Virus record (IMG/VR): IMGVR_UViG_2671181188_000016
From: a virus
Taxonomy: Duplodnaviria; Heunggongvirae; Uroviricota; Caudoviricetes
Length of the DNA: 8,419 bases
Direction: 5' to 3' (one strand)
Shown here piece after piece: positions 1-6,225 of this stretch (the stretch's first letter is position 1; each line of letters starts with the position of its first letter). Below the pieces are notes generated by a model, which saw only the letters and a program-made list of their open reading frames with translations, made no database searches and had not been told where the DNA came from. Position numbers and translations under genes: made by a program.

Positions 1-1224
1 ATGAGCAGGGCAATTCATAGACTTAGCGACACTCTTTTACGAAAATTAAGCGGATCACCAACCACAAAAAGCACCTTTTTTAATGATGGTGGCAACCTTA
101 GCGTAAGGCATTCAACCAATGGCCTGTTAACCTGGTATTTCACTTACAGGTCCGGAACTGGTAGGCAGATATCACCTGAACGTCTGAGGCTGGGAAATTA
201 TCCAGATTTGAGCCTGAAAGCAGCCAGGGAAAAAGCGTCGCAATGTCGCGCATGGCTGGCTGAGGGGAAAAATCCGCGCTATGAACTTAATCATGCTGTA
301 CAGGACGCGTTAGCCCCCGTGACGGTTAAGGAAGCGCTCACTTACTGGCTTGAATCGTACGCAAAGGAAAAGCGCACTGACTACGAATCACTGAAAAGCC
401 GGATCAATAAACACATAATTAGCCAGATTGGAGCTATGCCACTGGAAAAATGCGAGCTACGCCACTGGCTGGCCTGTTTTGACCAGCTTGCTAAGCGTAA
501 TCCGGTATCAGCCGGATTTTTGCTACAGGTATGCAAACAGGCGCTTAAGTACTGCCGAAAACGACGATACGCAATCAGCAACGTTCTTGATGATATGGTT
601 GTCGGTGATGTTGGGAAAAAAGCAGAAATAAGCGAGCGCGTACTAACAAACAAGGAGCTTGGGGAATTACTACGCGCCCTTGATGAAAAAATTTACCCAC
701 CGTACTACAGCGCCCTGATTCGCCTCCTGATTGTCTTCGGATGTCGTACCACTGAGCTAAGACGCTCTGAGGTCCAGGAATGGGATTTTAAAGAAATGCT
801 CTGGACCGTGCCGAAAGAACACAGCAAAACGAAGGTAGCAATATTCAGGCCAATACCGGAAGCGATCTTGCCGTTTGTCATGAAGCTGGTGGAGCAGAAC
901 AGGCACACGGGCTTATTGCTCGGAGAACTGAAAGGGCAATCATCCGTATCAGAGTACGGAAGAACGGCACACAGACGCATTAATCAAGCCCCCTGGACGT
1001 TGCACGACATCCGGCACACGTTTACAACGATGCTGAACGATTTAGGCGTGGAACCGCATGTTGTGGAGCAGCTTACCGCGCACCAGTTGCCAGGAATGCA
1101 ACGAGTCTATAATCACTCCCGTTATCTTGATGCAAAACGTGACGCTCTTAATCTATGGGTTGAGCGCCTCGATGTGCTGGCTGGAAATCATGAAAATATT
1201 GTTATGCTGAAGGTGGCCAAATGA
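1..1224 (+). CDS. int: Tyrosine site-specific integrase (P4-type phage integrase family), 407 aa; window starts at its ATG
   Basis: Long ORF from track. C-terminal catalytic-domain motifs typical of tyrosine recombinases: conserved Arg in LIVFGCRTTELRR, HDIRHTF (His-x-x-Arg box), and AHQLPGMQRVYNHSRY with the presumptive nucleophile Tyr. Stop TGA 1222-1224. Internal ORFs on both strands are shadows. Confidence 0.9.
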   Translation: MSRAIHRLSDTLLRKLSGSPTTKSTFFNDGGNLSVRHSTNGLLTWYFTYRSGTGRQISPERLRLGNYPDLSLKAAREKASQCRAWLAEGKNPRYELNHAVQDALAPVTVKEALTYWLESYAKEKRTDYESLKSRINKHIISQIGAMPLEKCELRHWLACFDQLAKRNPVSAGFLLQVCKQALKYCRKRRYAISNVLDDMVVGDVGKKAEISERVLTNKELGELLRALDEKIYPPYYSALIRLLIVFGCRTTELRRSEVQEWDFKEMLWTVPKEHSKTKVAIFRPIPEAILPFVMKLVEQNRHTGLLLGELKGQSSVSEYGRTAHRRINQAPWTLHDIRHTFTTMLNDLGVEPHVVEQLTAHQLPGMQRVYNHSRYLDAKRDALNLWVERLDVLAGNHENIVMLKVAK

Positions 1225-2085: not shown

Positions 2086-2310
2086 ATGAATCAAAATACA
2101 CAATTTCAATCACTATCAGATCGCGTAATCCGTGAGGATGAATGCCGTAAGTTAACAGGAGTGTGCCGCACTACACGCTACGAACTGGAGAAAAAAGGGA
2201 ATTTCCCGTCACGCCGTAATCTGGGTGGTCGTTCAGTAGGTTGGCTGCTTTCCGAGGTTATGGAATGGGTTAAAAGCCGGGATCGTATTAATTCAGGTAA
2301 GGCAGCGTAG
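2086..2310 (+). CDS. alpA: AlpA-family (prophage CP4-57-type) transcriptional regulator / excisionase-like HTH protein, 74 aa
   Basis: Sequence RKLTGVCRTTRYELEKKGNFPSRRNLGGRSVGWLLSEVMEWVKSR matches the AlpA signature (HTH followed by FP...LG.RSVGW..E..EW). Position downstream of int is typical of satellites and cryptic prophages. Confidence 0.85.
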   Translation: MNQNTQFQSLSDRVIREDECRKLTGVCRTTRYELEKKGNFPSRRNLGGRSVGWLLSEVMEWVKSRDRINSGKAA

Positions 2311-2335
2311 GGGGAACATATGACACATAAAACAA

Positions 2336-2355
2336 AGGCGACCTGTGGCGGTCGC
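2336..2355 (-). terminator. Possible minus-strand terminator hairpin between convergent alpA and the RHH-like gene
   Basis: GGCGACC (2336-2342) and GGTCGCC (2349-2355) are inverted repeats with a 6-nt loop. On the minus strand the hairpin is followed by TTTGTTTTAT (plus 2326-2335). No T-run on the plus strand. Confidence 0.3.
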
Positions 2356-2444
2356 CAATGGGAAAACACTAAACATAAGCCCGAACATCATAGCGATTTG
2401 CTGTCTGGTGGGCAATGTGCTCAGTGTGCTGGCTTGCTGGTGGA

Positions 2445-2624
2445 CTATTCCTGCTCTTTGGCCTTGCGGCGCTGGCGGCGTTTGATCTCGCCTTCAAGTG
2501 CCGAAACGATAAATTGCCCAGTGCTTTCGCCTTCTTCCTTTAAATTTTCTACGGCGTCAGCTATTGCATGGGGGACTCGTGCCTCAAGTTTTTTGGATTT
2601 TCCATTAACTGCTTTCGTTGCCAT
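2445..2624 (-). CDS. Small ribbon-helix-helix-like DNA-binding protein, 59 aa from the internal ATG (longest ORF extends to 2807); candidate repressor/regulator
   Basis: Minus-strand ORF; the ATG at plus 2622-2624 has a good SD (AAGGAA, about 7 nt spacing), whereas the longer 120-aa form has a hydrophobic, shadow-like N-extension. KKLEARVPHAIADAVENLKEEGESTGQFIVSALEGEI fits a beta-strand plus two helices as in RHH proteins; basic C-tail. Divergent from a promoter carrying direct repeats. Confidence 0.5.
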   Translation of the reverse strand: MATKAVNGKSKKLEARVPHAIADAVENLKEEGESTGQFIVSALEGEIKRRQRRKAKEQE

Positions 2625-2645
2625 ATCTGATTTCCTTGTTATTAG

Positions 2646-2727
2646 GTGGCTGACAGTATACACACAAGAAAATGGAAAAACACTATTGACGTGGCTGACA
2701 CCTGTTACTAGTATAGTGGCTGACACC
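2646..2727. promoter_or_regulatory. Divergent promoter/operator region: rightward sigma70-like promoter (-35 TTGACG 2686-2691, 17-bp spacer, -10 TAGTAT 2709-2714) within three direct repeats GTGGCTGACA at 2646-2655, 2691-2700 and 2716-2725
   Basis: Near-consensus -35/-10 with 17-bp spacing read from the sequence. The 10-bp repeat occurs three times (copies 2 and 3 extend to GTGGCTGACACC): copy 2 overlaps -35/spacer, copy 3 the predicted start site, copy 1 a leftward -10-like TATACT (plus 2655-2660) upstream of the RHH gene. Confidence 0.5.
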
Positions 2728-2743
2728 TTTATTGAGGTAATCG

Positions 2744-2791
2744 ATGAAAAGACAAAGCCCGCAGGTGCTACCAACACCAACGGGCTTCTAA
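2744..2791 (+). CDS. Possible 15-aa leader peptide (MKRQSPQVLPTPTGF) just downstream of the rightward promoter
   Basis: ATG 2744 preceded by GAGGT with about 5 nt spacing; stop TAA 2789-2791. Too short to call with confidence. Confidence 0.2.
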   Translation: MKRQSPQVLPTPTGF

Positions 2792-2823
2792 CAACCAACG
2801 ATAGCAACAGTATCGAGGTAGCT

Positions 2824-3027
2824 ATGAGAAATCATACCACACACCCGCAAGGGCGGGACTCGCACAACCTGAATAAATACATCTGGCGTTTTCTGGCCCT
2901 GAGTGCCGGAGAATCTCAAATCATCCACGTAACCGCCTGGACGGAACGCGAAGCGCGTAGCCGTTGCCCGTCAGGTTGTGTTGCTGTATTTGTCGCCCGT
3001 ATTCGTCAGGGGGTGTGCCGTGCTTAA
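2824..3027 (+). CDS. Hypothetical small protein, 67 aa; uncertain, may be untranslated leader
   Basis: Downstream part of track ORF 2320..3027; ATG 2824 with GAGGT about 6 nt upstream. Arg/Cys-rich, not obviously protein-like; the upstream part of the track ORF overlaps the minus-strand RHH gene and the promoter and is rejected. Confidence 0.25.
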   Translation: MRNHTTHPQGRDSHNLNKYIWRFLALSAGESQIIHVTAWTEREARSRCPSGCVAVFVARIRQGVCRA

Positions 3028-3633: not shown

Positions 3634-3933
3634 ATGAAACTTAAATATTCTGGCTTAACTGCCAGCGGCAAAACTCGCACTAAATTCATGTGCGGGGATA
3701 TTTACCGCGATAAGTACGGCGGCACGGTAATGATTAAGGGCGTGGAGGAACGGCGCGTAACTTACCGCCGTGAAGGCTACGAATATGATTGCGTTATGCC
3801 TGTTTATCAGTTCAACCGTGATTTTTCTCTGGTACAGGCAGCGCCCCGCAGTAAGCCAACCAGCAGGGAGAAAGCACGCGCCAATATTCAGGAAATAAAA
3901 AAGATGCTTAACGTATTCAGGGGTAAAAAATGA
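3634..3933 (+). CDS. Hypothetical 99-aa basic protein immediately upstream of, and stop-start overlapping, the replication gene
   Basis: ATG 3634 with GGAGA about 9 nt upstream; stop TGA 3931-3933 overlaps the ATG 3930 of the next gene (ATGA). Lys/Arg/Tyr-rich. Its position before the primase gene is where P4 carries epsilon, but no sequence identity is claimed. Confidence 0.6.
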   Translation: MKLKYSGLTASGKTRTKFMCGDIYRDKYGGTVMIKGVEERRVTYRREGYEYDCVMPVYQFNRDFSLVQAAPRSKPTSREKARANIQEIKKMLNVFRGKK

Positions 3934-5684
3934 AACTGGCACCGAACGTAAAAAAACAGCCACGCGGAATAAAACACAAAGACACAGAGGTGATTATTTT
4001 CGCGGGTAGTGATGCGTGGGCACATGCAAAACAGTGGCAGGAGCAGGACGGCCCCGCATCCGGCGATAATGTGCCTCCTGTGTGGCTTGGGCCAAATCAG
4101 CTTGCCGAACTTTATGCACTGCAAATTGTTCCTGATGGAAAAAAACGCGTAAGGCTGTACCAGGCAGGAGAACTGGACTTGGTGGAGACCAAAAAGATTG
4201 GTCAGAAGCTGGCGGCGGCAGGTGTACAGGATGCAAATTTTTACCCCGAAGGAATGCACGTTCAGAAGGTGGAGAACTGGCGCGAATATCTTGCCCGTGA
4301 GCGCCAGAATCTTTCTGATGGTCTGGTCGTTGAGCTTCCGGTAAAGCAAAAGGCGCAACTTTCACAGATGGCGGACAGTGAGCGCGCGCAGATGCTTGCT
4401 GGTCGATTTGATGGCGTTTGCGTACATCCTGAAAGTGAAATCGTTCACGTATGGCGCGGCGGGGTATGGTGTCCGGTCAGCACAATGGAACTTAGCCGCG
4501 AAATGGTGGCGATCTATTCAGAGCACAGGGCCACTTTCAGCAAGCGCGTAATCAATAACGCCGTTGAAGCGTTAAAAGTTATTGCCGAACCAATGGGGGA
4601 GCCGTCCGGCGATTTGCTGCCGTTCGCCAATGGTGCGCTTGACCTGAAAACGGGGGAATTTTCCCCGCACACGCCGGAGAACTGGATCACCACGCACAAC
4701 GGCATTGAGTACACGCCACCAGCACCTGGGGAGAACATCCGCGACAACGCGCCAAACTTTCACAAATGGCTTGATCACGCAGCCGGAAAAGACCCGCGCA
4801 AGATGATGCGTATATGTGCCGCGCTGTACATGATTATGGCGAACCGGTACGACTGGCAGATGTTTATTGAGGCCACCGGAGACGGCGGTAGCGGTAAAAG
4901 TACATTCACACACATAGCCAGCCTTCTGGCAGGGAAACAGAACACCGTAAGCGCGGAGATGACATCACTCGATGATGCAGGAGGGCGCGCGCAGGTTGTC
5001 GGGAGTCGTCTTATCGTCCTGGCTGACCAGCCGAAATATACAGGCGAAGGAACGGGCATCAAGAAAATCACGGGCGGCGACCCCGTGGAAATTAACCCGA
5101 AATATGAAAAGCGTTTCACGGCGGTAATCAGGGCGGTGGTGCTGGCGACCAACAACAACCCGATGATATTCACCGAACGGGCCGGAGGCGTGGCACGTCG
5201 TCGGGTTATTTTTCGCTTTGACAATATCGTTAGCGAGGCAGAAAAGGACAAGGATTTGCCGGAGAAGGTCGCGGCTGAAATCCCTGTGATTATCCGCCGC
5301 TTGCTGGCTAATTTTGCTGACCCTGAAAAGGCACGGGCTTTATTACTGGAACAGCGCGACGGTGATGAAGCACTGGCGATAAAGCAACAGACAGATCCGG
5401 TTATTGAGTTTTGCCAGTTCCTGAATTTTCTGGAGGAAGCGCGCGGCCTGATGATGGGTGGCGGTGGCGATTCCGTGAAGTACACGACCAGAAACAGCCT
5501 TTACCGCGTCTATCTGGCGTTTATGGCATACGCAGGAAGAAGCAAGCCGCTAAACGTGGCTGATTTCAGCAAGGCCATGAAGCCAGCGGCGAAAGTTTAC
5601 GGACATGAATATATTACGCGAAAAGTTAAGGGAGTAACGCAGACCAACGCAATTACAACTGATGATTGCGACGCGTTTTTATAA
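3930..5684 (+). CDS. Replication initiator: primase/helicase-type protein with P-loop NTPase domain (P4 alpha / D5-like, SF3 helicase class), 584 aa
   Basis: Walker A motif ATGDGGSGKST and a downstream hydrophobic stretch ending in Asp (RLIVLAD, Walker B-like) read from the translation. Size and position (followed by an iteron array) match satellite pri-rep genes. The numerous minus-strand ORFs inside it are shadows. Confidence 0.85.
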   Translation: MKLAPNVKKQPRGIKHKDTEVIIFAGSDAWAHAKQWQEQDGPASGDNVPPVWLGPNQLAELYALQIVPDGKKRVRLYQAGELDLVETKKIGQKLAAAGVQDANFYPEGMHVQKVENWREYLARERQNLSDGLVVELPVKQKAQLSQMADSERAQMLAGRFDGVCVHPESEIVHVWRGGVWCPVSTMELSREMVAIYSEHRATFSKRVINNAVEALKVIAEPMGEPSGDLLPFANGALDLKTGEFSPHTPENWITTHNGIEYTPPAPGENIRDNAPNFHKWLDHAAGKDPRKMMRICAALYMIMANRYDWQMFIEATGDGGSGKSTFTHIASLLAGKQNTVSAEMTSLDDAGGRAQVVGSRLIVLADQPKYTGEGTGIKKITGGDPVEINPKYEKRFTAVIRAVVLATNNNPMIFTERAGGVARRRVIFRFDNIVSEAEKDKDLPEKVAAEIPVIIRRLLANFADPEKARALLLEQRDGDEALAIKQQTDPVIEFCQFLNFLEEARGLMMGGGGDSVKYTTRNSLYRVYLAFMAYAGRSKPLNVADFSKAMKPAAKVYGHEYITRKVKGVTQTNAITTDDCDAFL

Positions 5685-5692
5685 TTTTAGAC

Positions 5693-5927
5693 AAAAGCCC
5701 TCTACCTCTTCTACCCGAATGAAATAAACGCATATTATTCAATATGATAAGTGGGTAGAGGGGCAGGTAGAAGGCAAATAAAAGCCCTCTACCCCCTCCA
5801 CCTTGATTAAGGTCGTTTGTGAGGGGCGGGTAGAGGATGGGTAGAGGGCCACGAAAAGCCCTCTACCCATCTGAAAGCCGCGCCATTACTGACCTGAAAG
5901 ATGATTAGGTAGAAGAGGTAGAGGAGG
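5693..5927. repeat. Candidate replication origin: iteron array of GCCCTCTACC-type repeats in both orientations around an AT-rich segment
   Basis: Direct copies AAAAGCCCTCTACC at 5693-5706, 5780-5793 and 5854-5867. Inverted copies (GGTAGAGGG...) at 5754-5764, 5829-5838, 5839-5850, plus degenerate GGTAGAAG/GGTAGAGGAGG at 5908-5927. AT-rich stretch 5718-5750 between the first convergent pair. Lies directly 3' of the primase/helicase gene. Confidence 0.65.
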
Positions 5928-5973
5928 TGCACCACAACCTAAAACTTTTTAAACGAGGGGGGTAAAAATAAAA

Positions 5974-6225
5974 ATGCACACATCAGGAAAATTGAACAAT
6001 CAGAAGAAACCACATAACCGCGCCATTGACCTTACAGAGCACTGGCTGAGGGTGGCGATAAAAATCATCGACCGCCACACACGGGAAGGATACGCGAAGG
6101 AGAATCCCGAACTGATAAGCGCATTCATGACCACAGCGGCGGCAAACTTTGCCACGCTGACAGAGCGGGAGATTGCAGAAGCGGAACAGGTAACAACCAT
6201 CAACGTTAAAAGCACTGGAGAATAA
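5974..6225 (+). CDS. Hypothetical 83-aa protein downstream of the origin
   Basis: ORF from track; G-rich SD-like GAGGGGGG upstream with rather long spacing; followed by an intrinsic terminator. No recognised domain. Confidence 0.5.
   Translation: MHTSGKLNNQKKPHNRAIDLTEHWLRVAIKIIDRHTREGYAKENPELISAFMTTAAANFATLTEREIAEAEQVTTINVKSTGE

Follow-up and report, generated by a model that had tools for sequence, protein, structure and literature searches.

The satellite DNA analysed here, a stretch of 8,419 nt that is referred to below as the window, carries a dense set of short repeats at positions 5693–5927, immediately after a replication gene. This arrangement raises the question of whether the repeats are the origin at which the element replicates and, if so, whether the protein encoded just upstream is the one that reads them. 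An earlier note on this DNA had proposed an iteron-type origin. The comparisons reported below lead us to regard the segment, with a probability of about 0.88, as a replication origin of the type found in phage-inducible chromosomal islands (PICIs), recognised specifically by its own upstream-encoded initiator-helicase. The earlier proposal is thus upheld: sequence features described for PICI and staphylococcal (SaPI) origins are present, the repeat cores are conserved among 66 unique relatives, the repeats change together with the initiator, and a homologue, EcCICFT073, has been tested experimentally.

Satellite context of the locus

Judged by its gene content, the window is a PICI-type phage satellite. 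Genes encoding an integrase (Int), an AlpA regulator, a DUF4222 protein, the replication initiator Rep, a small-terminase-like protein (TerS) and a capsid protein were identified, all on the + strand (Table 1). An int gene and an alpA regulator were found together with a unidirectional operon and without lysis or tail genes, and the gene order is that of Gram-negative PICIs. The array lies in the intergenic region between rep and an 83-aa ORF. Downstream of alpA, a listed 235-aa ORF (2320–3027) matches phage "transcriptional repressor" families over residues 144–234 (phrog_6196, E-value 2e-42); the annotation of the O157:H7 relative described below shows at this place a YlcI/YnfO gene in antisense and an Icd-like inhibitor of cell division. 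Among the relatives, the DUF4222 gene precedes every initiator type seen (D5-type, DUF927 and RepA-type).

When 5,426 complete E. coli genomes were searched with the origin segment by megablast, 263 of them gave hits, the best being 95.5% identical. This best match belongs to an 8.4-kb island in E. coli O157:H7 (L001, 3445–11817), located between yljB/cspD and clpS. Related satellites occupy up to five places per E. coli genome. The packaging module of the O157:H7 island consists of a small-terminase-like gene and a gene of the capsid family (~307 aa) alone, followed by the chromosomal clpS gene (window counterpart, 6728–8419). This 8.4-kb island may be a reduced or decayed capsid-forming PICI.

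Table 1. Coordinates of genes, origin elements and iteron sites in the window, with the site maps of two relatives
Feature	Position	Strand	Details
Tyrosine integrase gene	1–1224	+	
AlpA regulator gene	2086–2310	+	
DUF4222 gene	3634–3933	+	overlaps the rep start (ATGA)
Rep initiator gene	3930–5684	+	584 aa; Pfam D5_N, DUF5906, Pox_D5
C-terminal winged-helix (predicted origin-binding) domain	5391–5657	+	Rep residues 488–576; match to 1KA8
Rep codons 544 and 547	5559–5561 and 5568–5570	+	residues co-occurring with iteron subtype
Intergenic region with array	between rep and 83-aa ORF		289 bp
All iteron sites	5699(-), 5708(-), AT-rich, 5754(+), 5766(+), 5786(-), 5795(-), 5829(+), 5840(+), 5860(-), 5908(+), 5917(+)	both	
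Left iteron pair	5699–5715	-	GGTAGAGG 5699–5706 and GGTAGAAG 5708–5715; 9 bp apart
AT-rich segment	5716–5751		proposed DNA-unwinding element
Iteron pair	5754–5773	+	GGTAGAGG 5754–5761 and GGTAGAAG 5766–5773; 12 bp apart
Iteron pair	5786–5802	-	GGTAGAGG 5786–5793 and GGTGGAGG 5795–5802
Iteron pair	5829–5847	+	GGTAGAGG 5829–5836 and GGTAGAGG 5840–5847; 11 bp apart
Single iteron	5860–5867	-	GGTAGAGG
Conserved non-iteron block	5872–5895		CTGAAAGCCGCGCCATTACTGACC; inside the array; from the conservation profile
Right-most iteron pair	5908–5924	+	GGTAGAAG 5908–5915 and GGTAGAGG 5917–5924; perfect inverted copy of left pair
83-aa ORF	5974–6225	+	phrog_1231 (function not assigned); right border of the origin-containing intergenic region
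Small-terminase-like gene (terS), then capsid gene	downstream of 83-aa ORF	+	
EcCICFT073 site map	17-, 26-, AT-rich, 72+, 94-, 105-, 114-, 145+, 156+, 178-, 224+, 233+	both	
L019 site map	32-, 42-, AT-rich, 86+, 106-, 117-, 125-, 171+, 181+, 201-, 246+, 254+	both	

Repeat array downstream of rep

The earlier note had spoken of at least three perfect direct copies of a 14-mer, and exact copies of AAAAGCCCTCTACC were indeed located at 5693, 5780 and 5854. Only 0.07 copies would be expected even if up to two mismatches were allowed, and three copies were obtained in none of 200 shuffled sequences. The inverted and degenerate copies quoted in the same place were likewise recovered (GGTAGAGGGCC at 5840 and GGTAGAAGAGGTAGAGGAGG at 5908–5927). 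With at most one mismatch, the octamer GGTAGAGG has 14 matches in the window versus 3.4 expected (0 of 200 shuffles reach 14), and 11 of these fall within 5699–5924. Exact GGTAGA/TCTACC hexamers occur ten times in the 8,419-bp window, all within 5701–5922; in 1000 shuffles of the window there were never more than three per 240 bp. The array can be described as 11 sites in both orientations with the consensus RGGTAGARGR. Sites are spaced 9–12 bp apart within pairs, and groups are separated by 22, 32 and 44–46 bp. The two outermost pairs are perfect inverted copies of each other over 17 nt (5699–5715/5908–5924).

The position of the array, said to follow directly on the initiator gene, was borne out: rep ends at 5684, the first 14-mer begins at 5693, 8 nt further on, and the first octamer begins at 5699, about 14–15 nt past the gene. 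The interval 5718–5750, pointed out before as AT-rich, has a G+C content of 18%, compared with 47% for the whole window. No 36-mer in the intergenic region is poorer in G+C than the one within the slightly longer segment 5716–5751 (25% G+C). The repeats had also been described as arranged around this segment. Oppositely oriented pairs do flank it, with two (-) sites ahead of it and two (+) sites immediately after it, but it is eccentric rather than central, having two sites on its left and nine on its right.

One block within the array is not an iteron. The sequence CTGAAAGCCGCGCCATTACTGACC is conserved to the level of the iterons across the 66 relatives and could be a site for a host factor, or could simply reflect low divergence. 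A 10-mer from this block, CCGCGCCATT, is found again within the 83-aa ORF (6018–6027).

Other elements were searched for in the same region. No DnaA box within two mismatches of TTATCCACA was found in 5650–6000, nor was an IHF consensus, a Fis consensus or a GATC site found in that interval. No Rfam family matched the region at E-values up to 1. The region has a strong predicted single-strand fold (z = -7.5), which is explained by the inverted orientation of iterons and was for this reason not counted in favour of an RNA or hairpin element. A terminator-like hairpin followed by a T-run was seen at 5648–5680 (hairpin 5648–5670), inside the last rep codons and at the place that t-alpha occupies in P4. 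It was discarded as a candidate: it lies within coding sequence, its stem is weak (three GC pairs), and the stem is lost in a Shigella relative (L002).

Conserved domains of the initiator

The Pfam domains of Rep are arranged in the order D5_N, DUF5906 P-loop (SF3 helicase) and a Pox_D5-type C-terminal domain. Residues 193–432 match the SF3 helicase core of the SaPI5 PriRep protein (PDB 7OLA, E-value 1e-14). The C-terminal residues listed in Table 1 match the origin-binding winged-helix domain of the P4 alpha protein (PDB 1KA8, E-value 1e-5). Rep shares 40% amino acid identity with alpha residues 324–756. A search for protein homologues of Rep returned only E. coli and Shigella proteins of 95–98% identity.

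In the N-terminal part of Rep, no primase domain or primase signature is recognisable in residues 1–140; Pfam assigns no domain to this part, which does not correspond to the primase domain of P4 either. Residues 1 to ~160 (3930–4400) are the most variable part among close Rep relatives, with 48–98% identity. The N-terminal ~125–163 aa are 64–80% identical to the N-termini of initiators from the same locus whose bodies are otherwise unrelated, a DUF927 initiator (L021) and AAA_25/RepA-type initiators (L022–L024). This part of the protein looks like an exchangeable adaptor module.

Conservation and exchange of probable origin modules

A total of 93 related loci were gathered from E. coli genomes and IMG/VR, yielding intergenic sequences of which 66 are unique. 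In nearly all of these 66, hexamer cores are located at the same 11 sites and point the same way. Core columns have a mean conservation of 0.908 versus 0.744 for the other array columns (Mann–Whitney p = 2.6e-9, 66 unique sequences), and 33 of 66 core columns are invariant, versus 31 of 170 other columns of the array. Nearly all relatives have the left iteron pair in one place (17-, 26-), and the core columns of the 5829–5847 pair are invariant or nearly so. In one locus, L041, a 38-bp deletion has removed the left pair.

Several loci carry a different initiator between the same neighbours. L021 encodes a DUF927 initiator and has GGGACRAC repeats in its intergenic region, and L022–L024 encode AAA_25/RepA-type helicase initiators accompanied by AAGTGGGG, AAGTGGGC or AAGTGAGG repeats. 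No GGTAGA cluster was found in the intergenic regions of these four loci. The swapped-initiator loci share with the window the DUF4222 gene, the 83-aa ORF and, in L022, TerS. An identical DUF4222 protein (WP_000770163.1) is encoded upstream of both D5-type and RepA-type initiators, and homologues of the 83-aa ORF follow the origin whatever the initiator type, with 74–89% identity across modules. The GGTAGA array itself was found beside SSB/PerC cargo, and the capsid/packaging modules that accompany it are of at least four kinds. One locus accommodates four initiator types, each with repeats of its own. This comparative evidence supports the view that the repeats track the initiator type and not the neighbouring genes.

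A scan of genome contigs with Rep gave three loci, which were used as distant relatives but were too few for statistical work; the statistics were drawn from the E. coli genomes and IMG/VR. Distant D5-type Reps are encoded by vB_KppS-Ant (L019) and a Serratia locus (L003), with 41–54% identity, and a Morganella locus (L004) encodes a 794-aa alpha-like protein with Zn_Ribbon_Prim and Toprim_3 domains. These three loci have TGTTCAC-type repeats: GGTGAACA in L019, which is the exact P4 type I repeat, ACTGTTCAC in L003 and TGTTCAT in L004. Their site order is almost superimposable on that of the window family, (-,-) AT-rich (+)(-,-)(+,+)(-)(+,+). The lowest-GC segment follows the first pair in the window family and in these three loci alike, and relatives whose iterons are unrelated have it in the same place. 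Correspondingly, the iteron classes differ from one another in the third helix of the C-terminal domain.

The experimentally tested relative EcCICFT073

EcCICFT073 (L105) is the island next to phoQ in strain CFT073, with capsid gene c1499 and decoration gene c1500. Its Pri-Rep shares 93.3% identity with the window Rep across all 584 residues. The two islands have the same order of int, alpA, DUF4222, 584-aa Rep, ori and a small ORF. The EcCICFT073 intergenic region (288 bp) contains eleven GGTAGA sites in essentially the positions and orientations of the window, and the shared GGTAGA core is accompanied in both by an AT-rich segment after the first iteron pair, with 19% G+C in EcCICFT073. Iteron positions 7–8 are GG/AG in the window but CA/TA in EcCICFT073, and Rep residues 544 and 547 are A and S in the former but N and G in the latter. 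The sites that come next after the AT-rich segment are 70+ and 82+ in the window but 72+ and 94- in EcCICFT073. Downstream cargo and packaging genes also differ between the two.

A rep-ori fragment of EcCICFT073 maintains a temperature-sensitive plasmid at 44 °C, an ability that is lost when rep is mutated (Fillol-Salom et al., 2018; PMC6092414). Deletion of its ori lowers colony numbers significantly but does not abolish them (PMC6092414). The window array is a new iteron-subtype relative of this experimentally supported origin.

Comparison with known replication origins

Origins of SaPIs contain six to twelve short iterons immediately downstream of rep, with an AT-rich region that is roughly central and has at least two oppositely oriented iterons on each side (PMC9371898). 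SaPI Reps are SF3 helicases that bind the iterons through a C-terminal winged helix and load themselves at such origins (PMC9371898). The window resembles these systems in its 11 short iterons just 3' of rep, oppositely oriented about an AT-rich region, and in an SF3 helicase initiator with a C-terminal winged-helix domain and a related helicase core. It differs from them in iteron length (8–10 bp, compared with penta- or hexanucleotides in SaPIs), in the eccentric rather than roughly central AT-rich region, and in hosts and regulation (AlpA instead of Stl). Sequence similarity between the window Rep and SaPI Rep is confined to the helicase core.

In phage P4, repeat arrays are located at 4291–4590 and 9310–9413, and the two elements, ori and crr, are 4.5 kb apart. 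The crr element lies directly 3' of the alpha gene, just after t-alpha; replication requires it in cis as an enhancer but does not initiate there. It is built of two units of 120 bp, and on the alpha-sense strand the five octamers of each unit run + - - + +. The window array shares with P4 the octamers in both orientations, set ~9 bp apart in pairs directly 3' of the initiator gene, and is the positional equivalent of crr, with a similar inner pattern. The homology of Rep to alpha includes the origin-binding domain. The repeats themselves differ: the P4 type I octamer is TGTTCACC, compared with RGGTAGARGR in the window, although the distant Rep relative L019 has exact TGTTCACC. A short-word blastn comparison of the window origin with P4 ori and crr gave no iteron-level matches and no extended similarity. 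P4 needs two arrays, whereas the window has a single one, and the primase domain of alpha (Zn ribbon and Toprim) is absent from the window Rep.

Iterons of plasmids such as pSC101, R6K, RK2 and P1 are ~17–22 bp long and are mostly tandem direct repeats. Plasmid iteron origins also contain DnaA boxes and use a non-helicase winged-helix Rep that recruits DnaB. The window has in common with them the repeated initiator-binding sites beside an AT-rich unwinding region and an initiator encoded adjacent to these sites. Unlike plasmid origins, it combines 8–10 bp sites in both orientations with a P-loop helicase initiator and no DnaA box, and the likeness is therefore loose. Of the "standard satellite and plasmid origin layout" claimed previously, the satellite half agrees with what was found here for PICI and SaPI elements, but the plasmid half applies in this loose sense only.

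Alternative roles of the array

The P4 comparison suggests that the array might be a cis-acting replication enhancer of the crr kind, bound by Rep, with the true initiation site elsewhere. The place of crr immediately 3' of alpha, the resemblance of its + - - + + order to the inner array, and the 40% identity between Rep and the part of alpha that comprises its helicase and origin-binding domain all fit this idea. However, neither the window nor the O157:H7 island, taken in full and with its flanks, contains a second GGTAGA cluster. The array moreover holds its own AT-rich segment, and an EcCICFT073 construct with only rep and this region still replicated (PMC6092414). Because there is no second cluster and the array has an AT-rich core of its own, we take it to be an origin that suffices by itself, and the enhancer alternative, to which we attach low weight, is very unlikely.

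Transcriptional control is a further candidate. The repeats could serve mainly as an operator or promoter, with Rep or a further protein of the island regulating the operon of the 83-aa ORF, terS and capsid genes. Iteron-binding initiators often autoregulate, which favours this possibility, the downstream genes are on the same strand, and a sigma-70-like match lies in the AT-rich segment (5719–5748). That match, however, is the only one in the promoter scan, with 1.2 expected, and is thus at chance level; loci with another initiator have other repeats but a homologous downstream ORF; and eleven bidirectional sites about an AT-rich core far exceed the needs of an operator. A mainly regulatory array is accordingly very unlikely, and an operator role could accompany the origin function as a secondary one without replacing it. 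Terminase recognition sites can be repeat arrays as well, and the terS-like gene lies only ~0.8 kb downstream, so that a packaging (pac/cos) site for the small terminase of the island also deserves mention. Yet L022, whose TerS is 96% identical to that of the window, carries AAGTGGGGA repeats, no GGTAGA site and a different initiator, which excludes a terminase site, and the GGTAGA array co-occurs with at least four different packaging modules; we regard this role as extremely improbable. The same holds for chance or low-complexity repetition without function. It is suggested by the purine/pyrimidine-rich composition of the motif and by nothing more, whereas the observed counts were reached by no shuffle, and position and orientation are conserved in 66 unique relatives while the spacers diverge, observations that refute it.

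Iteron subtypes and Rep residues 544 and 547

Within the close family, positions 7–8 of all iterons are either mostly RG (also TG and CG) or mostly YA (CA and TA). Among 167 variable Rep columns, the only two that separate these subtypes are residues 544 (A/N) and 547 (S/G). In 70 unique rep-ori combinations, G-type sites occur with 38 of 39 A/S Reps and A-type sites with 31 of 31 N/G Reps, so that the pairing holds in 69 of 70. The exception is L059, apparently a recombinant, in which an A544/S547 Rep is accompanied by YA-type iterons. In a single genome (IMG 2703718778) both subtypes are present, each in an island of its own (L043 and L090).

A single-sequence AlphaFold model of Rep residues 470–584 was used for helix positions only, given its low confidence (pLDDT 59.6). 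In this model residues 544 and 547 are at the start of a helix spanning residues 543–557, which would be the expected recognition helix. The nucleotide association with subtype (r2 ≥ 0.9) starts abruptly at codon 543 and runs through to the ori, and it includes synonymous sites in codons 543, 545, 546, 553 and 572. Since these synonymous sites are equally associated, helix, wing and origin are inherited together as a single haplotype block, and linkage alone can therefore explain the pairing of subtypes and residues. Covariation of the two residues was for this reason set aside as proof of specificity and kept as a hypothesis. That the RG (A544/S547) and YA (N544/G547) types represent a natural specificity switch, in which Rep residues and iteron positions 7–8 changed together, is a tentative idea that we consider possible but rather doubtful.

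Proposed initiation and significance

Family relationships suggest how the origin would work. A helper phage would trigger AlpA-dependent rightward transcription, leading to production of Rep. The C-terminal winged helices of Rep would then bind the eleven iterons; the sites and the domain are present in the sequence, and binding is predicted from them. Most iterons are paired at 9–12 bp, about one helical turn, and their orientations are opposite across the AT-rich segment. By analogy with SaPI Rep and P4 alpha, Rep may form SF3 hexamers, melt 5716–5751 and load itself as the replicative helicase. No DnaA would be needed in this scheme, because DnaA boxes are absent. Replication would amplify the excised island for packaging, and the iteron sequence would serve as an address restricting each Rep to its own origin.

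The finding, although correct, is an ordinary one, since the layout has already been described for such islands; it adds one more E. coli-type satellite origin, in which the published PICI layout holds, and little else to existing knowledge. What is gained is the exact site map, with 11 sites, the consensus RGGTAGARGR and an AT-rich core at 5716–5751. Origin and Rep together make a compact initiator-specific replicon that may be useful for engineered satellites. The site map shared by Reps of 41–93% identity that have different iterons provides a natural data set on how SF3 initiator-helicases read and melt their origins. The RG and YA subtypes make a simple system, differing at two Rep residues, for work on origin specificity and on how related satellites coexist. 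If the specificity switch is real, the two types would be orthogonal replicons, and close satellites could share a cell without cross-initiation or titration.
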